Source: Candidatus Saccharimonas sp.
Lineage (GTDB): Bacteria; Patescibacteriota; Saccharimonadia; Saccharimonadales; Saccharimonadaceae
Assembly (NCBI GenBank): GCA_015256915.3
Contig: CP076101.2
Coordinates: forward strand, 330,001-362,000
Direction: 5' to 3'
Length of the DNA: 32,000 nt
Shown here: positions 6,950 to 26,011 of the stretch, one piece after another
Layout of the letters: every line of letters starts with the position of its first letter
Position numbering within the stretch: the first letter of the stretch is position 1
Notes under the pieces: generated by a model
What the model saw: the letters and a program-made list of their open reading frames with translations, nothing else
The model's database searches: none
Told to the model about the DNA's origin: nothing
Program-made: the position numbers and the translations under genes

Positions 6950-8083
6950 ATGGAACTAAAAGATTACACTTATAAATTACCTGAAAATAAAATCGCAGCA
7001 CATCCGCCAAAAGTTCGTGGCAGTTCGAGATTACTAGCTTTAGATCGAAAAAGTGGTAAAATTACTGATAGCTTTTATAAAAATATTGTGGATTTCTTTG
7101 AGAGTGGCGATTTGCTCATCTTGAATGATACGAAAGTTATTAAAGCACGGCTTTTCGCCACAAAAGAGAGTGGAGCTGAGCGCGAATTAGTTGTTTTAGA
7201 GCGACACAGTTTTGATAGCGATTGGCACAAACATAAAGTTATGTATCGTGGAAAAATCAAATCTGGTGACAAGCTTTTTGTAAAAGATTCTTCATTAAAA
7301 GATCTCGCCAAAAATAATTTCGAAAAAGCAGAAATTAAAGTTGAAGAAATTCTTGGCGACGGACTCGCGATTGTGAGCTCAAAAATTGATCTTCGTGATC
7401 TTTGCGAAAACTTTGGTACAGTTCCTCTTCCGCCATATATGAGAAGAAACGCTACACCACTTGATATCGAGCGCTATCAAACTGTTTTTGCGGAAGAAAA
7501 AGGATCGGTTGCAGCACCAACCGCCAGCCTAAATATGACTGATGAAATTTTGAACTCATTAAGAGAAAAAGGCGTAGAAATTGCATACTTAACACTTCAT
7601 GTTGGGCTTGGAACTTTTATGCCAATTCGGGTTGAAAAAATTGAAGAACACCGAATGCATCAGGAATACTTTGAAATTCCAGTAAAAACTGTTGCAAAAA
7701 TTCAAAAAACCGCACAAAATGGCGGTAGAGTATTCGCACTCGGCACAACAGTCGCTAGAACACTCGAATATGCCCATAATGCAATTTTCGAAAAAAACCT
7801 AAACGGAAATTCTGGTAATCGTGAAGATTTAAGCAAGATTTCGAAATCTCAAAATGGTGATTTATCCGGTGAAGCAGATATTTTTATTTTTCCAGGATAT
7901 GAGTTTAAAACAATTCAAGGTTTAATCACGAATTTCCACGCGCCAAAATCAACAGTTTTAATGCTTGCAAGTGCTTTTGCCAGCTGGGAAAATCTTAAAA
8001 ATGCCTACAATCACGCAATTCAAAATGGTGAATATAAATTTCTATCATATGGCGATTCAATGATCATCTACCAAAATAAATAG
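6950..8083 (+). CDS. queA: S-adenosylmethionine:tRNA ribosyltransferase-isomerase
   Basis: The N-terminus YKLPENKIAAHPPKVRGSSRLLALDR...LILNDTKVIKARLF and the LPPYM motif are typical of QueA. Confidence 0.9.
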   Translation: MELKDYTYKLPENKIAAHPPKVRGSSRLLALDRKSGKITDSFYKNIVDFFESGDLLILNDTKVIKARLFATKESGAERELVVLERHSFDSDWHKHKVMYRGKIKSGDKLFVKDSSLKDLAKNNFEKAEIKVEEILGDGLAIVSSKIDLRDLCENFGTVPLPPYMRRNATPLDIERYQTVFAEEKGSVAAPTASLNMTDEILNSLREKGVEIAYLTLHVGLGTFMPIRVEKIEEHRMHQEYFEIPVKTVAKIQKTAQNGGRVFALGTTVARTLEYAHNAIFEKNLNGNSGNREDLSKISKSQNGDLSGEADIFIFPGYEFKTIQGLITNFHAPKSTVLMLASAFASWENLKNAYNHAIQNGEYKFLSYGDSMIIYQNK

Positions 8084-8110
8084 AGCGACTTAACGCTCTA
8101 TTTTACTTTC
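8082..8110. terminator. bidirectional terminator between queA and gpmA
   Basis: AGAGCG-ACTTAA-CGCTCT with T-rich tracts on both strands. Confidence 0.55.
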
Positions 8111-9494: not shown

Positions 9495-11735
9495 TTACAT
9501 TGTCGAGCCGTTCATATGTTTCACGCGAGCGGCAATTTCTTTATGTCTCCCTTTAACCATTGGACGGGCCTGCGGGTTGCCTAAGTAGCCACAAGTTCTT
9601 TTTACGACATCACAAGTTCTTGGGTCATTATTACCACAATTTGGACATTTGAATCCTCTTTCAGTTGGTTCAAAATCCCCTTCAAAGTTGCACTTGTAAC
9701 AGCGATCAATCGGAGTATTGGTCCCTAGATAACCGACACGGTCATAGGCATAGTCCCAAACAGCTTCCAAGGCTTTAGGATTTTGTTGAAGAACTGGATA
9801 CTCACAATAGTGGATAAAGCCACCTGATGCACCTGCTTCTGGATAAACTTTTTCAAAATCCAGCTTTTCAAACGGTGTCGGATTTTTTCGAACGTCATAA
9901 TGGAAAGAGTTCGTGTAATAACCCTTATCCGTAATATCAGGAATAGAACCGAATTTCTCTGTATCTAAACGGCAAAAGCGGTCAGTTAAGCTTTCGCTCG
10001 GTGTGGAATAAACACTAAAATGATAGCCAAATTCATTAGACCAGTCTTCACAGAGTTCTTTCATTTTTCGAACGATAGAAATTGTAAATTCTTTAGCCTT
10101 AGGATTAGTTTCCCACGAACCGCCATAAAAAACTGTACCGACTTCGTAAAGACCAATATAACCAAACGAAACAGTTGCACGACGATTTTTAAAAACCTCA
10201 TCAACCGAATCTTCAGGACTCAGCCTTTTGCCAAAAGCACCATATTGATACAAAATTGGCGCATTCGCTGGTGTTGCTTCCTTAGTCCGCTCAACACGAT
10301 AAACTAGTGCGTCTTTTACAATTTGAGCACGTTCATCAAAAATCCGCCAGAATTTTTCGAAATTGCCGTCAGATTCAATCGCAATTCGCGGCAAGTTTAG
10401 AGTAACTACGCCCAAATTCATTCGGCCAGAATTTACTTCTTCACCATTCTCATCTTTCCAACCTTGAAGGAAAGAACGACAACCCATTGGGACTTTAAAT
10501 GAACCCGTAAGTTCCACAATCTTATCATAAGATAAAATATCTGGATACATTCGCTTAGTCGCACACTGCAAAGCTAATTGCTTAATGTCATAATTCGGAT
10601 CTTCACGATAAAGATTTACGCCACGTTTAAGTGTAAATACCAGCTTTGGAAAAATCGCAGTGCGCTGCGACGCACCCAAACCTTTAATACGAATGGTTAA
10701 GATGGCTTTTTGAATTTCACGTTCGAGCTCAGTTTGACCGAGCCCAAAACCGAAAGTCACAAACGGCGTTTGACCGTTTGAAGTAAAAAGCGTGTTGACT
10801 TCATACTCAAGAGATTGTATAGCATCGTAGATATCTTTACGTGTTCTTTTCCAAGCATACTCTTCCCATTTGTTACTGTCTTCAATCCACTCTTCAGCAT
10901 CTCTAAGATGTTTTTCGAAATTCTTTTTCGCATAAGGCGCGAGAAGCTCGTCAATACGGTCAGCCGAACAGCCGCCATATTGGTTTGATGCAACATTTGC
11001 GATTATTTGAGCAATTTGAGCGGCCGCTGTCTGAATTGATTTCGGACTCTCAATATCAGCGTTTCCCATTCGAAAGCCATTCTTAAGCATTCCTTTAAAA
11101 TCAATCAAACAACAGTTAGTCATTGGTTCGTAAGGGTTATAGTCAAGATCATGATAGTGGATCTCACCCTTTTGATGAGCGTTCGAAACGTGCAATGGAA
11201 GCATTTGTAAACCGATAGCTTTACCTGTAACACCAGCTGTCAAATCACGTCTCGTTGCAAAAACATCGCTATTTTTGTTTGCATTTTCATTCACCGTTGA
11301 AGGCTCTTTCGAGATCAACCGGCTAATCGTCTCATCAATTGATTGAGCACCTTCGCGTTCACGTGCTCGTTCTTCTCGATAATTGTGAAAATTATGATAA
11401 GTTGCAATGTCATTATCATAAAGCTTTCGCTCAACCAAATCTTGAATCTCTTCCACGGTAAAAACTTTTTTACCGTTCTTCACACTTTCTTTTAACTCAT
11501 CAAGTACGAAATTGCCAATTTTCAGCGATTCCATAATTGGATTAGCTGGGTCTTCACCTTCAGAGAATGTTGATTGAAAAGCTTTTTCGATCGCGTTAAA
11601 AATTCTCTCAACATCAAGTAAAACCTTACGGCCATCTCGCTTTATCACTTTAATGCCTCTAAAAGAAATCTTTATTCCTCCTAACTCTAAAGATTTTAGT
11701 TCCTGGCCACTAAATAGTTCAAGTTGTTCTTTCAT
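9495..11735 (-). CDS. nrdD: anaerobic (class III) ribonucleoside-triphosphate reductase
   Basis: N-terminal ATP-cone (VIKRDGRKVLLDVERI). C-terminal Zn ribbon CxxC...CPNCG. Glycyl-radical motif RTCGYLG. Confidence 0.92.
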   Translation of the reverse strand: MKEQLELFSGQELKSLELGGIKISFRGIKVIKRDGRKVLLDVERIFNAIEKAFQSTFSEGEDPANPIMESLKIGNFVLDELKESVKNGKKVFTVEEIQDLVERKLYDNDIATYHNFHNYREERAREREGAQSIDETISRLISKEPSTVNENANKNSDVFATRRDLTAGVTGKAIGLQMLPLHVSNAHQKGEIHYHDLDYNPYEPMTNCCLIDFKGMLKNGFRMGNADIESPKSIQTAAAQIAQIIANVASNQYGGCSADRIDELLAPYAKKNFEKHLRDAEEWIEDSNKWEEYAWKRTRKDIYDAIQSLEYEVNTLFTSNGQTPFVTFGFGLGQTELEREIQKAILTIRIKGLGASQRTAIFPKLVFTLKRGVNLYREDPNYDIKQLALQCATKRMYPDILSYDKIVELTGSFKVPMGCRSFLQGWKDENGEEVNSGRMNLGVVTLNLPRIAIESDGNFEKFWRIFDERAQIVKDALVYRVERTKEATPANAPILYQYGAFGKRLSPEDSVDEVFKNRRATVSFGYIGLYEVGTVFYGGSWETNPKAKEFTISIVRKMKELCEDWSNEFGYHFSVYSTPSESLTDRFCRLDTEKFGSIPDITDKGYYTNSFHYDVRKNPTPFEKLDFEKVYPEAGASGGFIHYCEYPVLQQNPKALEAVWDYAYDRVGYLGTNTPIDRCYKCNFEGDFEPTERGFKCPNCGNNDPRTCDVVKRTCGYLGNPQARPMVKGRHKEIAARVKHMNGSTM

Positions 11736-13695: not shown

Positions 13696-13950
13696 ATGAA
13701 CAATTTTTTAAAATTTATACAAAAAACTTTAAACAATTCAAATGAACGCATTGTGCTACAAAGATTTTATTTATTTATAGCATTATTCGGATTCATTATC
13801 GCAAGTTTTTTAAATATTTTCGAAAATTCAATTAGTAAAATTATCTTAATGATGGTTATTGCTGCAATTTCCATATTTTTTGTAAATGCAATAATATGGG
13901 TTATCGGTGAAGCTTTAAAGAGTAACTTTCTAAAAAATAATAAGAAATAG
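13696..13950 (+). CDS. hypothetical small membrane protein (84 aa)
   Basis: Two hydrophobic helices. The start is reassigned to the ATG directly downstream of the promoter. Confidence 0.45.
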   Translation: MNNFLKFIQKTLNNSNERIVLQRFYLFIALFGFIIASFLNIFENSISKIILMMVIAAISIFFVNAIIWVIGEALKSNFLKNNKK

Positions 13951-14301: not shown

Positions 14302-14377
14302 GCCGCGATAGCTCAGTTGGTAGAGCGCATCCATGGTAAGGATGAGGTCTCGGGTTCAAGCCCCGATCGTGGCTCCA
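14302..14377 (+). tRNA. tRNA-Thr (anticodon GGU), CCA encoded
   Basis: Hand-folded cloverleaf: 7-bp acceptor stem (one G.U), D arm GCTC/GAGC, anticodon arm CATCC-ATGGTAA-GGATG, T arm TCGGG-TTCAAGC-CCCGA, discriminator T plus CCA. 76 nt. Confidence 0.92.
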
Positions 14378-14417
14378 AGAGATTCTTTATTTCTTGGCAG
14401 TCTACGAAAATCAAATA

Positions 14418-14458
14418 CCGCACTCTGTTAATACATAAAGATGCGGCTTTTTATTTTT
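14418..14458 (+). terminator. terminator after tRNA-Thr
   Basis: CCGCA(C)TCT...AGATGCGG hairpin followed by CTTTTTATTTTT. Confidence 0.5.
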
Positions 14459-14500
14459 CCGATCAAGGAAATTTATAGATGAGTATAAATTACCTCTGGA

Positions 14501-15604
14501 TTAATAAAATCGCGTAAAAAAATTATATGCCTTACCAGTCCCTTTACTAATCATCCAGTCAAAAGCACTTCCGACGGTTTGAGCGGTCTTTTCACTACCA
14601 CCGTTGATAATATTTCCGGCAATATTTCGAATATGTGTAGTTGGTGCGGTCAAAAGTCCAGCTTTCCAAAGAGTTGTGAATTTATCCCATTTTGAGCTTG
14701 GAATTTGATCCCTTACTTCCCGAATAGCTTCACCAATCGCAATTCTTCGCGCTCGAATCTCTTTCAAATCACCTTCCGGCATCGCATAAGCTTCCCGTAG
14801 TTTTCCCAAGAATTCTGCTCGTTGCTCTGGTGTGATGTTAATTTGCTTGTTTGGCTTGTCCTTCATCTTGTCGTTGTAACTTTCAACTTCACGCATTGTA
14901 CTCATCAACACACCTTCAGGGGTTGTTCTTCGCATTAAGTTCAAAGCTTGCACGGTTCGCCCAGCTTCTGTTGCTTTTTTCGCAAGTTCAACATAGAGTT
15001 CACTTGCTTTTAGATCATCACCCATTGCTTGGTAGTGTTTGGCTAGAGCAATTCCTTTAGCCATAGTTTCATCATTTGCTACACGGGTATTTTCTAGTTC
15101 ATTAAACACTCTTTCTGGGCTTTCTTGTACAGATTTAGCTGCCTTGTTCCATAGTTCACTGTTCTTTTTTGGTGTATATTTCAAAGATTCATCACCAGCA
15201 TGCATTAATTTCACAAAGTCTTTTGGTGGCGTGTCTGTATCTAATACAGTTTCAGCGAATTTGCGGGTTTTTTGGTCTGTTTCAGCTAAATCACCTTTCG
15301 AATCTTGAGCAATCTTATAAACTGGATTTTCGTTATATACTGGTGCATTCTGCTTGTAGTTTTGGGCAAATTTACCAGTTTCAGCTTGTGCATAGAATTG
15401 TTTTAAAGTGTCTTGCTGTAATCCCAAAATACCCTTGATTGCTTCCACGATTCTGTCGTAGACTGCAAGCACTCTTGGTGGAATTCCTAATTTTGCACCA
15501 AGTCGTTGACTATCTTCACCAGCTAAAATACCGTTATAGTAATCACTAAAGCCATCTGCTAGATACTCTTCCGCAAAAAGGTTTGCACGCTCTTCGGGGT
15601 TCAT
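14501..15604 (-). CDS. C-terminal 367-aa part of the giant protein (as called in the track)
   Basis: Begins MNPEERANLFAEEYLADG, which looks like the glutamate-containing helix downstream of HExxH in ImmA/IrrE-like zincins. Only a weak SD (AGG) precedes its ATG. Confidence 0.5.
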   Translation of the reverse strand: MNPEERANLFAEEYLADGFSDYYNGILAGEDSQRLGAKLGIPPRVLAVYDRIVEAIKGILGLQQDTLKQFYAQAETGKFAQNYKQNAPVYNENPVYKIAQDSKGDLAETDQKTRKFAETVLDTDTPPKDFVKLMHAGDESLKYTPKKNSELWNKAAKSVQESPERVFNELENTRVANDETMAKGIALAKHYQAMGDDLKASELYVELAKKATEAGRTVQALNLMRRTTPEGVLMSTMREVESYNDKMKDKPNKQINITPEQRAEFLGKLREAYAMPEGDLKEIRARRIAIGEAIREVRDQIPSSKWDKFTTLWKAGLLTAPTTHIRNIAGNIINGGSEKTAQTVGSAFDWMISKGTGKAYNFFTRFY

Positions 15605-15670
15605 ATTAGCGACCTGTTGTGCGTAATTTTCACCATATTTTGCGTTTAGAGCTTCATCACCAACAGTATT

Positions 15671-18499
15671 TCAAATATCTGCAAGTAGTTCTGCTCGGTT
15701 ATCGGCACGTGTTAACAATTTGTGTCCAAGCTCATGGTTGAGTGTGTTTAAATCGCCATCGTTAATGGTAATTTTACCAGTTTTCTCATCAAAGAAACCT
15801 TGTGCACGGCGTTCCAATTCGTTCGCCCATTCATTGAAAGCAATGCTTTGATCTCCGGTAAGTTCTTGGTGACGAGCTTGAAGGTTCTCTTTGGCTACTC
15901 TTACCAAATTCTCCGCTTCAGCCTTTTGTTTAAAGCGTATAATTCCAGCAGCATCATCAACGCCCTTAAAGTATACAACTTCACCACTCTCGCCAAACTT
16001 ATCGCCTGTTTCTACAAAAGGTTTTTTAGTATATTGAGCAAAAGCTTCTGGTCGGCCAAGCGCCATTTGTTCTAAGAGATCATATTCATCTTCATCCATC
16101 TCATCATATAGCTTAGGATTTCGCATAATCTCATCCATTCGCTTATTAGCCATAGCTTGAAGCTTGTCTGATTCTTGCACTGAAACAGTGTTTTTGTCAT
16201 TTCTGCGAGTTTCAAGAATGTTATCACCATATTTATGTGCTGTATCTAAATTATCTGTAAAGAATGCTCCGTTTTCATAGTTGCCAGAATCTGCAAAGTT
16301 AGTTTGATTCTTAATAATCCCCCTACCAGTTTGTGCTTGACCACGATAGATTGGTGTTCCTTCGGTTTCGGTATAGTTAACTTCTGGTAAGTTAGAATTG
16401 TCGTTTGGTAGTCTATATTTTACGCTATCATTGACTTTTTGGTCATTTCGTGCTAAACTATCACTAGAAACATCGGAATAGGATCCAGTGGATGAGTTTT
16501 CTCTGAAGTTGGAAGTTCCGGTGTTTTCTTTTGTTGTAATTCCATATAAAGAATTTATATTTTGAGCATTATTTTTAGCAATATTTAAAGTATTATCAAA
16601 GCTTTTGCCGGCATATCGAGATTTTATATTTCGATAATCAAAACCATCTGGTGCTATACCATGGGCTTTAGAATCATCAGCACTATGTAGATATTGCGAT
16701 TTTTCAATTACATCTTTTATTCTTGGCACTAGTCGTTGCTTAGCGATAAATTCAGTATCTGTACCTGTTCCAGTGGTGTAACTGGATATTTTTTTATTCC
16801 CCTTATTAGTCAAGCTAATTTCTTGCCCATCACCCGTCACATACGGATTATTCGCCCGTAAATCTTGAAGCATATTAAAGCTACGCTCACTCATTCGTTT
16901 GCGAGTATCACCTGTAAATCTACCAATTAGCTCATCTTTAGTAAAGCCTAACTGATCGCTATCTAAACGACCAATGTTTGTTTCTCTCCTTGGGGTATAT
17001 TGCAAGTCTCCACCTCGGTTTTGCCTCTCCGCTTCTGCGAGGGTGATTTTTTCGCGCGTTGGAATTGTTGCATTTCTTTCTGCCTCATATAATGCTTTAG
17101 GATCATAATAGGTGTTTCTTTTAGTGTTGCCTAAAACTGCATCTGGGTGAAGTTTAGAGATACTCACTTCGCCATCTGCCATATTGTTGCTTTTATATGG
17201 ATTCTTAACCGATTCCATTCCACCGAAGGCCATTTTGCCAGCTCCGCCCATAATTCCACCCATTAAAGCACTTTCAGCGACACCTTCGTGAATATCTTGT
17301 TTGTTGTCGAAAAGCTTTTTGGTGAAGTTTTCGGCATATTGTTGTGCACCTTCTTCACCAGCTTCGCCCAATGCACCAGTAATAGCTCGCCCAACCATAT
17401 TTTTTGCAAATTTACCGCCAATTTTACCAGTAAGGTTATCAATTCCAAGCTTTTCAATTGCGGCTTGCACTCCAGCGTTAGCAGTTGAAGCTAAATAGCG
17501 CGAAGTAAAGCTACTTGGTGTGTATGTTTCACCTTTTGCTGCTGTTTCAGCCTTTTTGCGAGCTTCAATGTTGTCTAAGTGGTCCATCATATCTGAATGT
17601 GCCTCAACACCATGTACTACCGCTGGGGCGATACCACCAGTCACGGGGGTCATTGCAGCATCGATCGCCATTCTTGCTCCAGAACTACCTAAGCCATATG
17701 CCATTTTATTATCTTGATCAGTTAAGCCTGTTGCATCATTGAGTGTTTTTCGCACAATGTTCTTTTCACGGTCTGCTCGCACCCGTTTAATTAAATTGTT
17801 TGCAAATTGGTTGTCTTCATCAAATAATTTAATTGTATTAGCCCCAAATTCTGTAAGCGCTCCAGAAGTTTTCGGCACAAATTCTCCCACGGTATTAACT
17901 GCACCTTTCACTGCTGATACTGGCACAACAACTGTTTGTTGAAGATTATCATTATAATTTTTAGTGAAATCACTCACCGCTGTAGCATTTTTATTGATAT
18001 TCTGGCTAGTTTGCGCAATATTTTGCTTCGCTTGCTGATCATCTGGTCCATATTTTCGGAGCATTTCAGCGTTCACCCGGTTTTGAATATTCTGGTTAAT
18101 GGTGTTTTCTCGCATTTGGGCTGTTTTACCACCACTAAAAATATCATTCAAAAAGTTCGCCGCATGGTCTGACCCTTGGTTGTAGCGGTCTGTTTCTTCT
18201 TGCCGATACTTATCCGCCAACTGCTGGCGTTCTTGGTCTCGGTTCATTTGTGGTTGTGGTTGAATGGGTTGCACCGGTTTCACTGGGTTTAAGTCCACCG
18301 AACTCTTCGCAAATTCTTTTGGCTGTTGTGGCTGGGTGGGGTTGCTTAAATTATTCGCAAAATTATCTCCCAGTTTTGGTATGCTATTAAAACTCACCGC
18401 AGATTGTTGTTGCTGTGGTTGCTGTTGTTCATCTTCTCGCTTTTTCTTTTGGCCAAAAAGTCCACCAAAAAAGTCGCCAATACCTTTGAAAATATCCAT
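15671..18499 (-). CDS. N-terminal 942-aa part of the giant protein
   Basis: AAGGAG SD. Gly-rich hydrophobic N-terminus (MDIFKGIGDFFGGLFG), a Q/P-rich tract (codons 22-85), a glycine-zipper-like GGIMGGAGKMAFGG, and HELGH at 15722-15736. No recognisable housekeeping family. Resembles phage or conjugative-element polyvalent proteins (inference). Confidence 0.6.
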   Translation of the reverse strand: MDIFKGIGDFFGGLFGQKKKREDEQQQPQQQQSAVSFNSIPKLGDNFANNLSNPTQPQQPKEFAKSSVDLNPVKPVQPIQPQPQMNRDQERQQLADKYRQEETDRYNQGSDHAANFLNDIFSGGKTAQMRENTINQNIQNRVNAEMLRKYGPDDQQAKQNIAQTSQNINKNATAVSDFTKNYNDNLQQTVVVPVSAVKGAVNTVGEFVPKTSGALTEFGANTIKLFDEDNQFANNLIKRVRADREKNIVRKTLNDATGLTDQDNKMAYGLGSSGARMAIDAAMTPVTGGIAPAVVHGVEAHSDMMDHLDNIEARKKAETAAKGETYTPSSFTSRYLASTANAGVQAAIEKLGIDNLTGKIGGKFAKNMVGRAITGALGEAGEEGAQQYAENFTKKLFDNKQDIHEGVAESALMGGIMGGAGKMAFGGMESVKNPYKSNNMADGEVSISKLHPDAVLGNTKRNTYYDPKALYEAERNATIPTREKITLAEAERQNRGGDLQYTPRRETNIGRLDSDQLGFTKDELIGRFTGDTRKRMSERSFNMLQDLRANNPYVTGDGQEISLTNKGNKKISSYTTGTGTDTEFIAKQRLVPRIKDVIEKSQYLHSADDSKAHGIAPDGFDYRNIKSRYAGKSFDNTLNIAKNNAQNINSLYGITTKENTGTSNFRENSSTGSYSDVSSDSLARNDQKVNDSVKYRLPNDNSNLPEVNYTETEGTPIYRGQAQTGRGIIKNQTNFADSGNYENGAFFTDNLDTAHKYGDNILETRRNDKNTVSVQESDKLQAMANKRMDEIMRNPKLYDEMDEDEYDLLEQMALGRPEAFAQYTKKPFVETGDKFGESGEVVYFKGVDDAAGIIRFKQKAEAENLVRVAKENLQARHQELTGDQSIAFNEWANELERRAQGFFDEKTGKITINDGDLNTLNHELGHKLLTRADNRAELLADI

Positions 18500-18595
18500 C
18501 TCTTCTCCTTATCTTGTCGCTGCAAAATAAAAAACTGAGCGACGCAAATGTTAATATTTTGCTAATCGCTCAGCGCTCTGAGTGGATTATTTTAT
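18500..18595 (-). promoter_or_regulatory. about 96-nt 5' leader of the giant gene with three mutually exclusive hairpins, one terminator-like
   Basis: Plus-strand coordinates: hairpin C 18566-18585; hairpin B 18536-18542 / 18566-18572, followed on the RNA by GUUUUUUAUUUU; hairpin A 18516-18521 / 18538-18543. Confidence 0.4.
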
Positions 18596-18601
18596 AATTT
18601 T

Positions 18602-18631
18602 ATTATAACACAAAACCCATGTCTCTAACAA
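18602..18631 (-). promoter_or_regulatory. promoter of the giant gene
   Basis: Minus strand reads TTGTTA-18 nt-TGtTATAAT. Confidence 0.45.
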
Positions 18632-18711
18632 TTTTTATTCTACTTATGTTTTGTCAATACCTTTTTTGGGCTTTTTTCGCCAATTTTATATCTGTAATTT
18701 GACAAAATGTA

Positions 18712-18740
18712 TTGATTATTTTTTAATAGTGTGGTATAAT
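18712..18740 (+). promoter_or_regulatory. orphan near-consensus promoter pointing into the 3' end of the DUF3644-like gene
   Basis: TTGATT-17 nt-TGgTATAAT. No plus-strand protein gene lies downstream. Confidence 0.5.
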
Positions 18741-18746
18741 AGAAAC

Positions 18747-18840
18747 ATAAAGATAGCCTGTAAAGGAAAAAAGCTGAGTTCCCGAATGGGAGTAAGACAA
18801 CGGTCGAGAATTCTCATGCTCCTGGGGCTATTTTTCTTTT
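18747..18840 (+). ncRNA. candidate ~95-nt structured small RNA, or just a bidirectional terminator module
   Basis: P1 18753-18758 / 18826-18831, P2 18772-18778 / 18813-18820 (one bulge), P3 18780-18783 / 18788-18791, then UUUUUCUUUU. It overlaps the stop codon of the convergent gene. Confidence 0.35.
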
Positions 18841-19820
18841 AGCTCTTCAATTGATCGCTTAAGATTTTCTATAATATTTTCAGGATCTTTTTTTATAGCT
18901 TCTATGATAATATTTACGAATTTATCCGAGTAAGCAAATCTATTCAGCCATTTAAAGCAATATTCGGGATTATCTTTAGCATTATAAAATTTCACAAATA
19001 ACTGAAAATCATTAGTAGTAAAAATAGAGTTTATTCTCTCTTCTCCTTTTATTTTAGTTATTTTTATATTTTCGTTCTTTAACGCTTTATTCACCAAATT
19101 AACCACATTATTCGTAAAGCGTGGGTGAGTTTTCCGCGGATCAAGGATCTTATTAACCTGAACTACCGAATCGTCAGCATCTAGGCTAACAGATACAGAC
19201 CAGTCAGCTTCGTCTTCATTCTTAGTGATAAATATTTTTGACTCGATCGGTATAGCAAATTTATCACCACTACTTTGAATTTCCTGTTCTATCTGATGTT
19301 TTTCCGATAATATCTTTTCGGCCATCTCTGGTGAATATTTGGCTCGGATCTCTTCATCTGTTGCTACATTTACTTGAGCAGATAACATAATAAACCCATG
19401 CGGTAAAATATTCAAAATATCTATCCCGTGATATTCTTTCATTTTATCTATATAATCGATAACATTTCGCTGAAAAATTTGAACATACATAGACTCGTGG
19501 TCTGTTGTAATAAAATGACTGCTCTTATTGCGCAGATTATTTATTGTATTTATATTTTTACGAAGAGGAGAATTCTTATTTGTTATAACTCGCTTAAGAG
19601 ACTCTGGTAAAGAAAGCGTATTATTACTATTTTTGTAGTAGATAGGTTTTTCATCTTTTAATAATTTAGCTTTCAGCATAAGTTCCCAAGCATTGCATAC
19701 GAAAAGAGCAAACCCCTCAACTCTATATTTAATAGTTGGTTTATTATAGATTTCTAAAGCCATAGTAAAAGCTTCAATACTTTTTTCTATCATTTTTTCA
19801 GAAAGTTGTTTATTATTCAT
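18828..19820 (-). CDS. DUF3644-like protein with an Rx4H (HEPN-like) motif; candidate defence or abortive-infection gene
   Basis: The N-terminal IEAFTMALEIYNKPTIKYRVEGFALFVCNAWELMLKAKL matches my memory of the DUF3644 signature (YNKP...YR.E.F......AWE.L.KA). LRNKSSH fits Rx4-6H. Start moved to the ATG at 19820; the track start at 19931 overlaps the upstream gene. Confidence 0.6.
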   Translation of the reverse strand: MNNKQLSEKMIEKSIEAFTMALEIYNKPTIKYRVEGFALFVCNAWELMLKAKLLKDEKPIYYKNSNNTLSLPESLKRVITNKNSPLRKNINTINNLRNKSSHFITTDHESMYVQIFQRNVIDYIDKMKEYHGIDILNILPHGFIMLSAQVNVATDEEIRAKYSPEMAEKILSEKHQIEQEIQSSGDKFAIPIESKIFITKNEDEADWSVSVSLDADDSVVQVNKILDPRKTHPRFTNNVVNLVNKALKNENIKITKIKGEERINSIFTTNDFQLFVKFYNAKDNPEYCFKWLNRFAYSDKFVNIIIEAIKKDPENIIENLKRSIEELKEK

Positions 19821-19827
19821 ACCTACT

Positions 19828-19836
19828 ATTATACCA
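19828..19836 (-). promoter_or_regulatory. extended -10 box 7 nt upstream of the DUF3644-like ATG (leaderless-type)
   Basis: Minus strand reads TGgTATAAT, then AGTAGGT, then ATG. Confidence 0.45.
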
Positions 19837-19839
19837 TAA

Positions 19840-19862
19840 CCAAAAGAAAGCCCTTTCGAGCT
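19840..19862 (-). terminator. short terminator after the 383-aa gene
   Basis: Minus strand AGCUC-GAAA-GGGCU (one G.U pair) followed by UUCUUUUGG. Confidence 0.4.
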
Positions 19863-19869
19863 CCCTTTT

Positions 19870-21021
19870 CTACACCTGCAAATCCTTTTTCTTCTTATTT
19901 GGATCAAGCAACGCAGCAAGTCGTGGGTCAAGCTGGTCTTGGAGTCCCGCCTGATCCGGATTTCCGCTGTCCACTTTCACACCTTGCACATTTTCGCTAT
20001 AATCGCTAAGCTTTGGTGCTTTAAATTCCACTTTTTCAAGGGCTTTTGGTGTTTCCTTGCTCAAATCCAAAATCTTGTTCTGGCTGTTGCTAATCTGGTT
20101 AGATAGATCCCGTGTTTGGTCTATCGCACTCTGCAACCCTTGGCCATTGGCAGTCTTCTGTTTCTGCCTTGCATCCATAATGCGGCTATTCAAGTCAATT
20201 CGGCTACTTTCAATTTGTGAGTCAACATTATTTAACGCATCTTGGCGGTTAGTTTCCCAATCTTTCTTGTTCTTATTGTACGCATTAGTTGCGCTAGCAA
20301 ACTCCAAGTCTTGGTTTCGGCGATCTCGAGCGAAAGCATCTTGTGCGCTTCCAGCGTTTCGGCTCGCCTCCAAACCAACTGCCCAAGGAGCGACAATTTG
20401 TGCTGCGCTTGAATCTCCCGCTCCACCTGCTGCAAACATTTGGCGCAAAGCGTTGGTTTGATTGTTTGCATCTTCCATGATTTGTGAACGCACTGCACGG
20501 TTTTGGGCTTCTGAGTCTCGTTTGTTCATCTCATATGCGCCCTTGCTTTGGGTATAGCTGTTTTCAAGGTCATTTAGCTGGTGGGCGTAGTTATTTTCAA
20601 CATTACCACGCCAAATATCTCGTTGGCGATCCAATCTGCCCAAACCTTCAGTTGCCACTCGTTCTTGCTCACGGTATTTCGCAATTTCATCTGCTCTTGC
20701 TTTTGCTTGAGGGTCGTAGGTTCCGCCTTGGCGTGGGTCTGAGTAGACTGGATCTGGTTTCTCCCTCTTGTTTTGATTTACATTATTCTTTTTCCAGTCA
20801 TTATATAATCCCCTTACAACATTGCTAGTTCCAGCGTATTCAAACCCTAGGTCGTTAGCATCATTAAAACCAGTTCCGTCAGGATGATTAGCCCTAATTA
20901 GAGCATTTCTATCTACGCCACCGTCATTTCCGGTATATTTCAAGAAGTTATTAAAACCGTTCGCAGCCAAAAAACCACGAAAGTCATCCTTGCCGTTATA
21001 ATTATTGTAGTCTAAAGCCAT
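19870..21021 (-). CDS. hypothetical Q/N/D/R-rich, predicted coiled-coil protein (383 aa)
   Basis: Long open frame with high local G+C and a GAGGA SD. No signal peptide or TM segment. No family recognised. Confidence 0.6.
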   Translation of the reverse strand: MALDYNNYNGKDDFRGFLAANGFNNFLKYTGNDGGVDRNALIRANHPDGTGFNDANDLGFEYAGTSNVVRGLYNDWKKNNVNQNKREKPDPVYSDPRQGGTYDPQAKARADEIAKYREQERVATEGLGRLDRQRDIWRGNVENNYAHQLNDLENSYTQSKGAYEMNKRDSEAQNRAVRSQIMEDANNQTNALRQMFAAGGAGDSSAAQIVAPWAVGLEASRNAGSAQDAFARDRRNQDLEFASATNAYNKNKKDWETNRQDALNNVDSQIESSRIDLNSRIMDARQKQKTANGQGLQSAIDQTRDLSNQISNSQNKILDLSKETPKALEKVEFKAPKLSDYSENVQGVKVDSGNPDQAGLQDQLDPRLAALLDPNKKKKDLQV

Positions 21022-21063
21022 ATCTTCCTCTATATGTTATTTGGGAGATAATGTTTGGCTTAG

Positions 21064-21642
21064 TTATTTTTTTTGACAAAAATGTTGAACAGCTATAGTA
21101 TGATAATGCTTCTCTCTTCCACCGCGCGTTACATACATTCCAGCGTGCGTAAATTTAGGGTTTAAAATATTCTCTTTATGTCCTTGACTACCCATCCAGC
21201 CATCTACGAGTTGTTTTTCTACAGGGTAGTTCCAAGAGATATTTTCCCCAAGCCAGCTACACCTTAAATTAGGGTTTAAATCTACGATATAATCCATCCC
21301 ATCATATCCGGTTTGCGGGTCTACATGGTCGGTGTTCTGAATATCCTGCATACGCTTAGCTTTTGTTTCGGCAGAAATATCAAGTTCATGAAGCCTTACT
21401 AAAGGTTTAACTCCAGCTTTAATTCTTTCTTCATTGACAAGCCTGAAGAGTTCGTCAGAGCTCAATTCTTTAAAAGTGTAATCTACTTTGGGCTCTTCTT
21501 TTTTCGCACATGTACCAGATAAGCAGTTGTTTATAAAATACATCGGAACGGCTATCAATACCACAGGTATCATAGCTATAGCTAAAATCATAAAAAATAC
21601 TTTAAGCATTCTTTTTATAGCTATCTTTTGCACATCTTTCAT
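21064..21642 (-). CDS. membrane-anchored CAP/SCP/PR-1 (YkwD-like) domain protein
   Basis: N-terminal TM helix. VNEERIKAGVKPL...GENI...VDGWMGSQGHKENILNPKFTHAGM matches the CAP-domain pattern (N..R...G..PL ... W..S.GH..N.L). Confidence 0.7.
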   Translation of the reverse strand: MKDVQKIAIKRMLKVFFMILAIAMIPVVLIAVPMYFINNCLSGTCAKKEEPKVDYTFKELSSDELFRLVNEERIKAGVKPLVRLHELDISAETKAKRMQDIQNTDHVDPQTGYDGMDYIVDLNPNLRCSWLGENISWNYPVEKQLVDGWMGSQGHKENILNPKFTHAGMYVTRGGREKHYHTIAVQHFCQKK

Positions 21643-21666
21643 ATCTTGATATTACTCCATTTAATT

Positions 21667-21700
21667 CAAAAAACAACCACCCATAAAATGAACGGTTGTT
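21667..21700 (-). terminator. terminator after rpsI (bidirectional shape)
   Basis: AACAACC...GGTTGTT 7-bp stem with T tracts on both sides. Confidence 0.45.
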
Positions 21701-21710
21701 TTTTTGTATA

Positions 21711-22109
21711 TTAACGCTTTGAGAACTGTTCTCGTTTTCGAGCAGATCGCAAACCGTATTTTTTGCGTTCCTTTTCGCGAGGGTCGCGTTTTAGGAATTC
21801 AGCCTTTTTAAGAACTGGTCGCAAGTCAGCATGAGCAATAGTTAGAGCTTTCGAAATAGCAAGCTTAATTGCGTCAACCTGACCAGCCAAACCACCACCG
21901 TTAACCTTTACAGTAATATCAAAATCAGCTTGTTTACCAACTAAGGCGAGCGGATCTGTGATCTCAGCAAGCATAGATTTATTACCATCAAGGTATTCAA
22001 TTGCAGTTTTACCATTAATAGTTAAATTACCTTTTCCAGCATATAGTCGAGCGCGAGCTGTTGCAGCCTTGCGTCGGCCAAGACCGTAGAAATATTTAGC
22101 TTCAGCCAT
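21711..22109 (-). CDS. rpsI: 30S ribosomal protein S9
   Basis: Full-length S9 ending in ...RKKYGLRSARKREQFSKR. Confidence 0.95.
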   Translation of the reverse strand: MAEAKYFYGLGRRKAATARARLYAGKGNLTINGKTAIEYLDGNKSMLAEITDPLALVGKQADFDITVKVNGGGLAGQVDAIKLAISKALTIAHADLRPVLKKAEFLKRDPREKERKKYGLRSARKREQFSKR

Positions 22110-25746: not shown

Positions 25747-25960
25747 AAATCTATACCATTCTACATTATACTACTCAAAAAGTCAAGCCCTTTTTATAAC
25801 TTTCTTAAAATTAAAAAGAACATTAAGTTATCAGTCTTCCTTTTTCTTTCGGAGATAATCGTAAATTTTAAATACTCTAGATCATATATTTCTAACGAGT
25901 TATTCTATCGATATTAAAAAAAACGATATTTTGCTTTGGCATATTTTCCACCCCTAAATT

Positions 25961-25996
25961 AAAAATGTACTACTTAATTGTAGTAGTACATTTTTA
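25961..25996. terminator. perfect bidirectional terminator after the sortase gene
   Basis: A5, then ATGTACTACT-TAATTGT-AGTAGTACAT (10-bp stem), then T5. Confidence 0.7.
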
Positions 25997-26011
25997 ATAT
26001 TTTTATTAATT

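Follow-up and report, generated by a model that had tools for sequence, protein, structure and literature searches.

What occupies the interval between rpsI and a tRNA-Thr gene in a Candidatus Saccharimonas sp., and why would a bacterium with a genome of ~0.64 Mb, recovered as a metagenome-assembled genome (MAG), keep it? The original prediction took the block at 14378–21710 for a foreign island that had begun as a mobile element and since decayed, or else had become a domesticated module. Strain variability, phage context, truncation and the polyvalent relatives of the largest gene all support this view. The window is the whole 32,000-nucleotide stretch analyzed, and the features needed here are as follows.

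14302–14377, plus strand: tRNA-Thr(GGT) (ARAGORN, Rfam); the variable interval ends on the right at its 3' end, which also serves phages for attachment
14378–14530, no strand: non-phage junction, which gives the truncated giant reading frame its last 9 codons and stop (14501–14530, AYNFFTRFY-stop)
14531–15670, minus strand: part of the giant gene beyond the nonsense codon, aa 944–1323 of the intact form (translation)
15671–15673, minus strand: in-frame TGA in place of a conserved CGA (Arg) codon, a nonsense mutation, aTTTGAAa here and aTTCGAAa in the sister contig L001
15674–18499, minus strand: 942-aa N-terminal product of the giant gene (translation, profile searches)
18500–18631, minus strand: the giant gene's own promoter-like site and leader (TTGTTA, 18 nt, TATAAT with a TG extension, 18631–18602)
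18614–19841, no strand: variable cargo slot, bounded by the 383-aa and giant genes (BLAST borders 18613 and 19842)
18828–19820, minus strand: 330-aa HEPN (DUF3644) plus EC042_2821 REase-like protein (PF12358, E 2e-46; PF18740, E 1e-22)
19829–19837, minus strand: putative extended −10 element TGGTATAAT of the HEPN-REase gene, read from the sequence
19870–21021, minus strand: 383-aa Q/N-rich helical protein, middle gene of the trio, at the same position in phage A (translation)
21064–21642, minus strand: membrane-anchored CAP/SCP-domain protein, first gene of the trio (PF00188, E 5e-13; phrog_16914, E 5e-18)
21643–21710, minus strand: left junction, a phage-derived ribosome-binding region to ~21659 followed by a weak rpsI terminator hairpin at ~21668–21700

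The tRNA-Thr(GGT) gene adjoining the block (ARAGORN), the 383-aa Q/N-rich gene and the DUF3644/HEPN-like gene in the AT-rich stretch (Pfam) lie where they had been predicted. The CAP protein is also as described, with PF00188 and an N-terminal hydrophobic anchor seen in the translation.

The interval between rpsI and tRNA-Thr

Comparison of relatives with an identical RpsI revealed that the rpsI-to-tRNA-Thr interval is filled by this block, by a type I R-M system or by BREX. Since its contents differ among such relatives, the interval is a variable hotspot. The borders first proposed are nearly exact, as relatives bearing R-M or BREX lose homology to the window at ~21668 and regain it at 14377. 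L009 carries a type I R-M system, after which the homology picks up exactly at 14377, L002 combines type I R-M with a retained part of the block, and L006 has BREX between rpsI and tRNA-Thr. Across loci, the contents are type I R-M, BREX, or the trio of CAP, 383-aa and giant genes with PDC-S19, a Panacea TA, an SLFN-like ATPase or others. Close relatives share the flanks and differ in defence or mobile cargo, the arrangement that characterizes a defence hotspot. The block itself is found at the same rpsI/tRNA-Thr locus in several species-level MAGs.

The composition of the block differs from that of its flanks. The TTTCGAAA signature, predicted to be missing from the block, occurs 26 times in the window, at ~1.05 per kb outside the block and 0 inside, and the hand counts of G+C are exact (34/60 at 20341–20400 and 12/60 at 19021–19080). 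Host flanks of 10.4 kb hold 8–12 copies of TTTCGAAA, phage A (described below) has one per 10–18 kb, and trio blocks contain 0–2; the R-M islands, with 7 copies, are host-like. The original prediction had named conservation at this locus together with host-like k-mer usage as evidence against a foreign origin. The block is indeed kept at the locus in many relatives, yet its k-mer usage is phage-like, not host-like.

The CAP protein scores 50.3 bits against a Pfam gathering score of 21.1, which places it in the CAP/SCP/PR-1 superfamily. It occurs as two or more very divergent allele classes (~30% versus >90% amino acid identity), in chromosomal and phage copies alike. The CAP gene lies directly behind the weak rpsI terminator, with no space for a separate promoter in the left junction, and is probably expressed by read-through from rplM-rpsI. 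The 383-aa protein has no Pfam, PHROG or PDB match; it has 461 relatives, the best 120 of which are all at least 90% identical.

Relation of the block to temperate phages

The CAP, 383-aa and giant genes were found in the IMG/VR contigs L011, L012, L016 and L017 at 85–94% nucleotide identity and with other flanks. On these phage A contigs, the trio sits between the head and tail genes of an integrase-bearing prophage. It is preceded by TerS (PF03592), TerL (PF04466, E 8e-16), portal and major head protein genes (phrog_422, E 8e-36) and followed by genes for a collagen-like fibre and a minor tail protein. The contigs encode tyrosine integrases (XerC/XerD-type recombinase matches, E 6e-13 and 2e-26), and in L039 the prophage borders the host genes arcC and pyk. 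Intact copies of phage A run from the integrase through small and large terminase, portal, major capsid and DUF3761 to CAP and the 383-aa protein, after which come the cargo slot, the giant polyvalent protein, tail/fibre genes and holin/lysin.

All that is left of this order in the chromosome is CAP, the gene for the 383-aa protein, the slot and a giant cut down to its first ~1,320 codons. Pfam and PHROG profile searches found no terminase, capsid, tail, lysis or integrase gene in the block, and the prediction that it would lack an integrase, capsid, terminase or conjugation gene holds. The chromosomal and phage A giants are collinear up to the residues GTGK and diverge after them, the phage reading frame extending 736 codons beyond the chromosomal end. 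A motif search matched five other chromosomal loci, and four of them (L001, L005, L007 and L008) have an identical truncation junction. The block is a collinear phage segment from which essential genes are absent, and its border gene, the giant, stops 736 codons early relative to the phage copy, both of which are features of defective prophages. We conclude, with a probability of roughly three in four, that the block is itself such a prophage, derived from an internal stretch of the ~25-kb temperate phage A of oral Saccharibacteria. In NJ trees, the phage copies interleave with the chromosomal copies.

The 3' end of tRNA-Thr(GGT) is a live phage attachment site. In L013–L015, a distinct second phage, prophage B, is integrated in tRNA-Thr, and a 48-nt copy of the tRNA 3' half lies between the giant gene and this prophage, whose genes include SLT lysin, Rad52, YqaJ and TerL (phrog_38, 2e-94). 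As predicted, the tRNA 3' end is not repeated elsewhere in the window, and att repeats flanking the element are therefore not seen there. A degenerate 40-nt copy of the tRNA-Thr 3' half, with 3 mismatches, was found in L020 between rpsI and a truncated DUF3761 gene. L020 is the sole relative with such a copy at the rpsI-side border, and this single relative suggests a tRNA-Thr origin of the block. The only phage A copy with a visible host junction adjoins arcC, not tRNA-Thr. The phage A contigs showed no att resembling tRNA-Thr, so how phage A-type DNA reached this tRNA gene is an inference. Two further candidates were considered and set aside. In L018, a 442-aa ORF lies beside a tRNA-Thr copy in inverted orientation, but it could not be recognised as an integrase. 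L035 contains a distant phage A-like prophage with its integrase beside a tRNA cluster that includes tRNA-Thr(GGT), a geometry that is no proof of integration into that gene.

Cryptic prophages lie beside tRNA genes in E. coli K-12, for example, and recombine with infecting relatives. The block resembles the K-12 cryptic prophages in being a temperate-phage fragment that lacks integrase, packaging or lysis genes, with an adjoining tRNA 3' end, a truncated border gene and foreign composition, and probably in recombining with infecting phages. It differs from them in that an internal virion-module piece was kept, not lysogeny or accessory genes, and in that it persists across species-level lineages, in a ~0.64-Mb genome and under strong purifying selection.

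The giant gene and the cargo slot

The Gly-rich N-terminus, Q/P-rich tract, glycine zipper and HELGH segment ascribed to the giant protein are all seen in the translation. The giant consists of a constant N-terminal 445-aa module and, after it, exchangeable modules, here an LPD3-like region, an unassigned module at the position of the relatives' ART-PolyVal domain and an HExxH module. The conserved N-terminal domain covers aa 1–445 (17165–18499), and is followed by the LPD3-like region at aa 543–613 (16661–16873; E 2e-5, 25 bits, below the Pfam gathering score of 27) and the swappable module at aa 697–855 (15935–16411). The first part of the HExxH module occupies aa 860–942, with HELGH at 15722–15736. 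Beyond the TGA lie the remainder of the HExxH module and a conserved C-terminal helical region (aa 1064–1323, 14531–15310); this part is 94–98% identical in amino acids to the other copies, chromosomal as well as phage A. The N-terminal ~445 aa are ~90% or more identical among 10 relatives inspected, have many invariant columns across 44 aligned relatives, and top proteins of 1,500–3,050 aa in 50%-identity clusters.

Comparison of P0001 and P0013 revealed cassette replacement at fixed borders; P0013 is near-identical to the window giant apart from aa 697–855, which are swapped for ART-PolyVal (E 3e-23). Close relatives with common N- and C-terminal parts carry either ART-PolyVal (E 3e-23) together with LPD3, or PBECR5 (E 1e-17). 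Among distant relatives, ART-PolyVal is present in 8 of 26 and LPD3 in 5 of 26, and PBECR3, LPD38 and ddrB-ParB occur too. In the relatives, the scores for ART-PolyVal, PBECR3/5, LPD3, LPD38 and ddrB-ParB all exceed the Pfam thresholds, and this domain set bears out the likeness to polyvalent proteins first proposed. Two or more such domains in one polypeptide are seen in the family, while LPD3, below threshold, is the sole match of the window giant to the polyvalent repertoire. The gene lies beside virion and packaging genes in L011, L012, L016 and L017.

Polyvalent proteins have been described from phages and conjugative elements (Iyer, Burroughs, Anand, de Souza & Aravind 2017, PMC5512222). 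The giant shares with them its size and multidomain build, its place among virion genes, its strongly mosaic alleles, an HExxH module between other domains, and relatives that combine ART-PolyVal, PBECR, LPD3, LPD38 and ddrB-ParB. It departs from the class as described (PMC5512222) in four respects: the window copy shows only the sub-threshold LPD3; its HExxH and ART-position modules have no Pfam or PDB match; the constant 445-aa domain at its N-terminus is neither MuF nor portal nor DarA-N; and it is chromosomal, 3'-truncated and interrupted by a nonsense codon. The zincin-like MPTase hub domain of polyvalent proteins combines an HExxH helix with a Glu-bearing helix that follows a small beta sheet. 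Of these traits, HELGH and, further downstream, a conserved AEE..AD helix show no variation among 7 diverged homologues, and a predicted model places short strands ahead of the HExxH helix. The HExxH module gave no Pfam match, PDB sequence match or fold match, and a profile search with the module at the ART position gave no significant PDB match. The giant as a whole had no significant PDB sequence match and 0 tblastn matches in 50,697 GenBank phage records, and neither it nor the 383-aa protein falls in a PHROGs family. AF2 modelling gave pLDDT values of 37 and 63; the model of the 942-aa product (44-sequence alignment), with a mean of 37, is unusable.

A tape-measure protein was also considered, as the giant's position before the distal tail genes fits. 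This reading was rejected because the giant's length varies by cassette, from 2,031 to 2,302 aa in the phage copies; no tape-measure PHROG or Pfam match was found in the giant.

The gene had been presented as a single 1,332-codon frame (14501–18499), but the TGA splits it into two ORFs of 942 and 389 codons. The TGA falls behind the HExxH helix and ahead of the conserved AEE helix. After the TGA, no further stop interrupts the frame for 389 codons, as would be expected if the codon were read through or recoded and the intact 1,332-aa protein made. Against this, the 99.97%-identical sister contig L001 has CGA (Arg) at this position, at least 90% of the 44 relatives have Arg there, TGA terminates three other genes in the window, and the NCBI annotation gives a 942-aa product (P0082). 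These observations identify the TGA as a nonsense mutation or a base error, not recoding; a recent mutation or a base-call error explains an allele that is found on a single contig only (P0082), and recoding is hardly credible. An alternative code with TGA as a sense codon was rejected on the single TGA, the CGA of L001 and the same three TGA-terminated genes.

Upstream of the giant gene, a hairpin-rich leader of ~100 nt carries an AAGGAG ribosome-binding site and is structured in the sense direction (fold z-score −3.2). Homology to phage A begins at 18613, inside this promoter/leader region. The leaderless-type promoter proposed for the cassette is plausible by sequence, as TGGTATAAT ends 7 nt before the ATG at 19820. 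The proposed convergent promoter did not hold up beyond a consensus match at 18712–18740 (plus strand); promoter-like matches in the region number 33 against 19.4 ± 4.4 in shuffled sequences, typical of AT-rich DNA. The structured convergent RNA fared no better, the antisense RNA from the putative promoter being ordinary in structure (z +0.57). Apart from the tRNA, no Rfam family was matched.

The cargo slot has a G+C content of ~31%, compared with 40–45% in its neighbours. Elsewhere it is either empty or filled by SocA/Panacea with a 125-aa gene, by an SLFN/AlbA_2 ATPase, by DUF3800 or by unknown genes. It is a feature of the phage itself, being empty in L012, L016 and L017 and holding DUF3800 in the phage contig L011. 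In the window, it contains the HEPN-REase gene, whose product matches PADLOC PDC-S19 over its full length (E 7e-113) and phrog_9605 (E 8e-107). An Rx4H motif (RNKSSH) is seen in the translation, so that the DUF3644 HEPN domain, Rx4-6H motif and REase-like domain that define the EC042_2821 HEPN-REase/PDC-S19 type are all present. Its relatives form one 96%-identical cluster, the remaining ones being 50% or less identical. The named relatives among the matches listed are nearly all from Firmicutes (mostly Lactobacillales, with Staphylococcus and Finegoldia), with one from Streptobacillus.

That DUF3644 is HEPN-like, as described earlier, is in line with Anantharaman et al. 2013 (PMC3710099). Among related DUF3644-HEPN proteins, the defences HEC-08 (bioRxiv 10.1101/2024.01.29.577857), whose C-terminal domains are of another type, and Ishtar (bioRxiv 10.64898/2026.07.06.735840) have been tested. 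The protein shares the N-terminal DUF3644 HEPN domain, the Rx4-6H motif and the occurrence as a single-gene cassette in defence contexts with EC042_2821-type HEPN (PMC3710099), HEC-08, Ishtar and PDC-S19, and the REase-like C-terminal domain with EC042_2821-type HEPN and PDC-S19. The C-terminal domains of HEC-08 are zinc-finger-like (bioRxiv 10.1101/2024.01.29.577857), whereas the one here is EC042_2821 REase-like. We regard the protein as a candidate single-gene anti-phage/anti-plasmid nuclease, its PDC-S19 activity being predicted. The slot is comparable to the hotspots of P2/P4 prophages and satellites (bioRxiv 10.1101/2021.01.21.427644) in its fixed position between conserved phage genes and its alternative defence cargo. 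It differs from them in lying between two virion-module genes of a Saccharibacteria phage and in its turnover continuing in a remnant unable to form phage.

Retention of the trio and its meaning

Analysis of substitution patterns indicated strong purifying selection on the three trio genes (dN/dS 0.06–0.20; ~0.06 for the part of the giant beyond the TGA and 0.17 for the 383-aa gene). Within an all-chromosomal clade with a common derived deletion, pN/pS is 0.03–0.08. The dS of the trio is 0.4–0.8, compared with 0.04–0.2 for the flanking ribosomal genes, and together with the interleaved trees this speaks for exchange with the phage pool. Purifying selection and a common truncation junction across species-level lineages are more readily explained by a function that was kept than by passive decay, but a similar purifying-selection signal could also arise through gene conversion from phages.

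These data bear on the strongest competing explanation, a domesticated phage module in which CAP, the 383-aa protein and the truncated giant are selected for a job that benefits the host. That job might be superinfection exclusion of phage A-type phages, with CAP blocking entry or the giant poisoning assembly or ejection, or the three might act as effectors against the bacterial host of the episymbiont. Domestication would account for the low dN/dS and the low pN/pS in the all-chromosomal clade, for ORFs of 993–1,332 codons open in most chromosomal copies though the DNA is AT-rich, for the homologous truncation junction in more than one lineage, and for the presence of the block at this locus in several species-level MAGs. 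The placement of CAP behind a weak rpsI terminator, the promoter-like site retained by the giant, the divergent CAP allele classes, as expected in an arms race, and the cost of 7 kb of junk in a genome of only ~0.64 Mb point the same way. However, the giant has a nonsense codon in the window genome, reaches no more than 740 aa in L018 and just 406 aa in L026, and is missing from L036, and the 383-aa gene is partial in L002 and L018. The trio is also dispensable, with R-M or BREX in its place in identical-RpsI relatives, and the interleaved trees let the selection signal come from phages. Domestication is thus possible, though we consider it doubtful. A more specific version is put forward still more tentatively: the three genes, for a membrane CAP protein, a helical partner and a truncated polyvalent giant whose enzymatic heads are swappable, would be a selected module serving a streamlined episymbiont as a superinfection-exclusion or assembly-poisoning device or as anti-host effectors, and the slot would be a platform on which phage and chromosome exchange defence genes by homologous recombination.

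A transfer in the reverse direction, with phage A acquiring a native Saccharibacteria module such as a cell-surface or effector operon, is very unlikely. The module is commoner in long chromosomal contigs than in phage contigs, and CAP and DUF3761 resemble surface proteins, not virion parts. Yet the trio lies between capsid and tail genes in the phage, the phage giant is complete and the chromosomal one truncated, the block is without the host TTTCGAAA signature, a fossil att copy borders it in L020, and polyvalent domains have been described from phages and conjugative elements (PMC5512222). Descent from a conjugative/T4SS element whose polyvalent protein was transferred with DNA is scarcely conceivable: conjugative elements do bear such proteins (PMC5512222), but relaxase, coupling protein and T4SS genes were not found in the block or the related loci examined, every informative context is a phage virion module, and the ddrB-ParB and LPD38 domains of the relatives are listed as phage-type only (PMC5512222).

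Under the preferred reading, a defective prophage derived from phage A, the giant would have served in the phage as a virion-delivered multi-effector protein. Packaging and delivery with the DNA are known for T4 Alt, P1 DarB/DdrB and the N4 virion RNA polymerase (PMC5512222), and the same is proposed for the giant, possibly with the zincin-like module processing it. The giant has no sequence similarity to these proteins, and its delivery is only proposed. In the cell, the HEPN-REase product is likeliest to be the part that acts today, by nuclease-based defence against incoming phage or plasmid nucleic acid. Homology arms of ~1–2 kb that flank the slot and the giant's variable centre would let the remnant trade alleles and cargo with infecting phage A relatives, which may keep the three genes intact. 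Direct selection on them is a possible further contribution.

The phage biology of Saccharibacteria and other CPR bacteria is nearly uncharted, and such interactions are still described as largely speculative in a 2026 paper (PMC13578794). The locus yields two distinct temperate phages of oral Saccharibacteria and a defined attachment site, tRNA-Thr(GGT), within a hotspot in which phage-borne cargo alternates with R-M and BREX. In a genome of 0.64 Mb, about 1% of the DNA comes from phage and has stayed intact across species-level lineages. The giant adds a polyvalent family in which the N-terminal module is constant and the enzymatic modules are exchangeable, two of the latter without a Pfam or PDB match. 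The TTTCGAAA signature cleanly divides native from phage-derived DNA here and could help to locate foreign DNA across these genomes.

Contents and borders of the rpsI/tRNA-Thr interval

The block between tRNA-Thr and rpsI carries the following genes, all of those between the two boundaries lying on the minus strand.

14302-14377, plus strand: tRNA-Thr(GGT)
14501-18499, minus strand: long frame of the giant protein
18828-19931, minus strand: DUF3644 + EC042_2821 protein, as listed by the ORF lister
19870-21021, minus strand: 383-aa Q/N-rich protein, without a family match
21064-21642, minus strand: CAP-domain protein (PF00188, E 5e-13) with a hydrophobic anchor at the N-terminus
21711-22109: rpsI, far boundary of the gene set that starts at tRNA-Thr

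Contigs encoding an identical RpsI were collected and aligned to the window. Their flanks are 94–98% identical to the window, and the rpsI/tRNA-Thr interval differs. Homology ends at about 21668 and restarts exactly at 14377, the 3' end of the tRNA, and these breaks coincide with the block borders of the original prediction. A second, inner variable segment (18614-19841), hereafter the slot, lies between the 383-aa gene and the giant.

Contents of the rpsI/tRNA-Thr interval in related contigs (loci were picked for diversity and hence are not a source of frequencies)
L001: block as in the window
L003, L010: CAP, 378-aa protein, SocA/Panacea plus 125-aa gene, 1,305-aa giant
L004: DUF3644 variant (43% identical) plus 993-aa giant
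L005: slot with two unknown genes
L007: DUF3761, CAP, 383-aa protein, giant; slot empty
L008: slot with SLFN/AlbA_2 ATPase
L009: whole block replaced by a type I R-M system
L006: whole block replaced by BREX
L002: type I R-M plus part of the block

Among species-representative genomes, several MAGs of Saccharimonas and Nanogingivalaceae have the trio of CAP gene, 383-aa gene and giant between rpsI and rpmG. In Nanogingivalis gingivitcus the trio is also present, with rearranged surroundings. The tRNA-Thr(GGT) is duplicated in inverted orientation, or displaced, in several contigs (L018:7741-7816 and 13836-13911; L002:16498-16919; L022, L023, L025), the displaced form being a unit of tRNA-Thr and a 60-aa ORF that has an R-M island on one side and, on the other, a 383-aa gene of which half is deleted. 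A 442-aa ORF beside the inverted copy had no Pfam match. These arrangements point to repeated rearrangement or recombination at the site. A second small variable spot lies at about 25750-26010 of the window, between the sortase gene and infA, where relatives (L002, L006, L009: 5363-6268) have an extra HAD-family gene or fragments (99, 185, 230 or 301 aa) absent in the window.

Relation of the block to two phages

We consider the block, with a probability of roughly three in four, to be a defective prophage fragment situated at tRNA-Thr in a hotspot of integration and defence. When IMG/VR was scanned with the giant N-terminus as the query, it yielded contigs carrying the trio at 85–94% nucleotide identity, with flanks wholly different from those of the window. 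The gene order in three of them (L012, L016 and L017) starts with TerS (PF03592), TerL (PF04466), an 83-aa gene and a portal gene (weak PHROG match), continues with 106-aa and 290-aa genes, a major head protein (phrog_422, E 8e-36) and a 113-aa gene, and then runs through DUF3761, CAP, a 374–383-aa protein and the giant. The L012 giant has 2,302 aa and is followed by a 220-aa gene; the L016 and L017 contigs stop within or just before the giant gene. The L011 giant has 2,015 aa from the ATG aligned with the chromosomal start, or 2,031 aa from the upstream TTG used by the ORF lister. After it come genes for products of 205, 680 and 126 aa, then a collagen-repeat protein and a gene weakly matching a minor tail protein. 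The remainder of the trio-bearing phage contigs encodes a holin-like protein, a lysin-like protein of 455 aa and a tyrosine integrase (XerC-like in PDB, E 2e-26), and we name this integrase-bearing prophage of about 25 kb phage A. The collinearity of the trio with phage A genes supports the earlier proposal of a foreign island or mobile element. On the other side of phage A, a second integrase type (E 6e-13) adjoins carbamate kinase (PDB 1b7b, E 5e-95) and a gene whose N-terminus, as read by eye, resembles that of pyruvate kinase. One strain (L039:10441-14117) has phage A beside carbamate kinase (arcC) and the pyruvate-kinase-like gene, with a 312-aa tyrosine integrase at the junction; a phage A variant (L041) has a different integrase of 288 aa.

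Comparison of the chromosomal and phage giants revealed that they are collinear up to ...GTGK, after which the chromosomal frame has nine unrelated codons and a stop and the phage ORF extends for another 736 codons. This junction is shared among chromosomal loci, one clade of which has an extra deletion of about 230 nt beside it, which points to a single truncation of the giant in their ancestor. At the opposite side of the block, DUF3761 is still present in L007 and L020. In L020, the stretch from rpsI to a truncated DUF3761 contains 40 nt that repeat the 3' half of tRNA-Thr with 3 mismatches, as would be expected if the element had entered by integrating into tRNA-Thr.

The starts of DUF3761 and CAP share a near-identical ribosome-binding/start region of about 25 nt, TGGA(A/G)TAA(C/T)ATCAAGATATGAAAGA (compared at window 21643-21665; L007:10440-10470 and 10940-10970; L012:7550-7580 and 8060-8090), and recombination between these repeats could explain the loss of DUF3761 in the window lineage. 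The CAP alleles (window 21064-21642 versus L003, L004, L012 and L019) fall into classes that share only about 30% identity, and each class is found on chromosomes and on phage A contigs; the adjacent 383-aa gene is about 80% or more identical.

A distinct phage, phage B, is inserted at tRNA-Thr(GGT) beside the trio in L013–L015. As described from L013, L014, L015, L030 and L031, it encodes an SLT lysin, Rad52-like and YqaJ proteins, a TerL (493 aa; phrog_38, 2e-94), a portal-MuF-like 870-aa protein, a protease and a major head protein. Its insertion leaves an att copy beside the giant, 48 nt of the tRNA 3' half spanning the anticodon loop to CCA (L013:4329-4376, L014:3674-3721, L015:5770-5817), and in L036 this att copy abuts a truncated 383-aa gene, with the giant missing. 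The tRNA-Thr(GGT) is thus a live phage attachment site.

The palindrome TTTCGAAA is the commonest 8-mer in the window (26 copies, about 1 per kb, e.g. at 95, 395, 1321 and 31791), roughly 30-fold over expectation from a rough base-composition estimate. As originally noted, the block contains no copy of it, and the hand G+C counts proved exact. The motif occurs 8–12 times per 10.4 kb in host flanks and 7 times per 6.6 kb in type I R-M islands, compared with 0–2 per 6.6 kb in trio blocks and 1 per 10–18 kb in phage A contigs, and this distribution is consistent with a phage origin. The motif is as dense in the flanks of L001–L010 and in R-M islands as in the window, and near-absent from DNA of phage origin. 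In density it is similar to DNA-uptake sequences; a link to a TTCGAA-specific methylation or restriction system is also possible.

The giant as a polyvalent-type protein

The N-terminal ~445 residues of the giant are about 90% or more identical in ten inspected relatives, with many columns invariant among 44 aligned relatives, and its centre is modular. The relative P0013 is equal to the intact form of the window giant except at residues 697-855: these are ART-PolyVal (E 3e-23) in P0013 and a different module, with a conserved YRG...FFT...E, in the window. A further relative carries PBECR5 (E 1e-17), and nr lists this protein as a Caudoviricetes nuclease. Among 1.84 billion cluster representatives searched, only 84 clusters matched, in which the N-terminal domain heads proteins of 1,500–3,050 aa, and the LPD3 region, the ART-position module and the HExxH module each recur separately in other giants. 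Pfam analysis of 26 clusters identified ART-PolyVal (8), LPD3 (5), PBECR3, ddrB-ParB, LPD38, ADPrib_exo_Tox and ART. In the window giant itself, LPD3 is the sole domain detectable by Pfam, with a score below threshold. The HExxH and a downstream AEE..AD helix are invariant in the HExxH module, which had no match in Pfam, PDB or a fold search. The giant is probably a phage-type polyvalent protein, and the suspected likeness to this class was upheld by relatives with ART-PolyVal, PBECR5, LPD3, LPD38 and ddrB-ParB. The definition of these domains is due to Iyer et al. 2017 (PMC5512222), who argue that polyvalent proteins whose genes lie among virion genes enter the particle and are injected along with the DNA, and that zincin-like peptidase domains process them.

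The 1,332-codon frame originally described as one protein is not a single gene in this genome, as the frame at 14501-18499 is interrupted by an in-frame TGA at 15671-15673. Recoding of TGA was rejected: L001, 99.97% identical to the window over 20.3 kb, has CGA at this position, Arg occupies the column in at least 90% of the 44 relatives, TGA is the stop codon of three other genes in the window, and the NCBI annotation of this MAG (Candidatus Saccharimonas sp., contig of 637,739 bp) gives a 942-aa product (P0082). The TGA falls between the HExxH and the AEE..AD helix, so the 942-aa product would lose the presumed third metal ligand and also the conserved C-terminal region. The TGA allele is known from one contig only and may be a recent mutation or a base-call error. 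The CGA-to-TGA change removes a TTCGAA site kept in L001 and is a C-to-T change at a CpG in the host signature motif, a pattern that, speculatively, fits deamination of a methylated cytosine.

Slot cargo, selection and decay

The slot is present in phage A itself, being empty in L012, L016 and L017 and occupied by DUF3800 in L011. The window slot is occupied by a gene for a 330-aa protein, with a likely start at the ATG at 19820, matching the sister-contig call. This protein matches PADLOC PDC-S19 over its full length (E 7e-113) and phrog_9605 (E 8e-107), and contains the Rx4H motif RNKSSH. DUF3644 corresponds to a HEPN family reported under the name EC042_2821, which occurs in R-M operons and in fusions with REase domains (PMC3710099). 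Two other DUF3644-HEPN proteins are protective: HEC-08, which has a different C-terminal domain from the slot protein, against phage (bioRxiv 10.1101/2024.01.29.577857), and Ishtar, whose C-terminal domain probably differs as well, against plasmid (bioRxiv 10.64898/2026.07.06.735840). The slot protein has one 96%-identical cluster, the next relatives being 50% identical or less, and its named relatives are almost all from Firmicutes (mostly Lactobacillales, plus Staphylococcus and Finegoldia), with one from Streptobacillus. The slot gene has a G+C content of 30%, versus 40–45% in its neighbours, and an extended -10 element ends 7 nt upstream of its ATG. The gene is a plug-in HEPN-REase cassette and a candidate defence nuclease.

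The dN/dS values (Nei-Gojobori) are 0.08 for the giant N-terminal domain, 0.06 for its C-terminal region, 0.17 for the 383-aa protein and 0.20 for CAP, and pN/pS is 0.03–0.08 over 60–80 synonymous differences in the chromosomal clade with the common derived deletion. Such low ratios fit a remnant under selection in the cell; they fit as well a remnant continually overwritten by functional phage copies, for which the sequences flanking the slot and the variable centre of the giant would serve as homology arms. The trio has a dS of 0.4–0.8, several-fold above that of rpoA, rpsD, rplQ, rplM and rpsI (0.04–0.2), and in NJ trees of the giant N-terminal domain, its C-terminal region and the 383-aa gene, phage copies are interleaved with chromosomal copies. 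Signs of decay comprise the nonsense codon in the window giant, giants of 740 aa in L018 and 406 aa in L026, partial 383-aa genes in L002 and L018, and loss of the giant in L036. Elements of this kind are already known; what is noteworthy here is the lineage, the modules without assignment, and the fact that the block persists in so small a genome.
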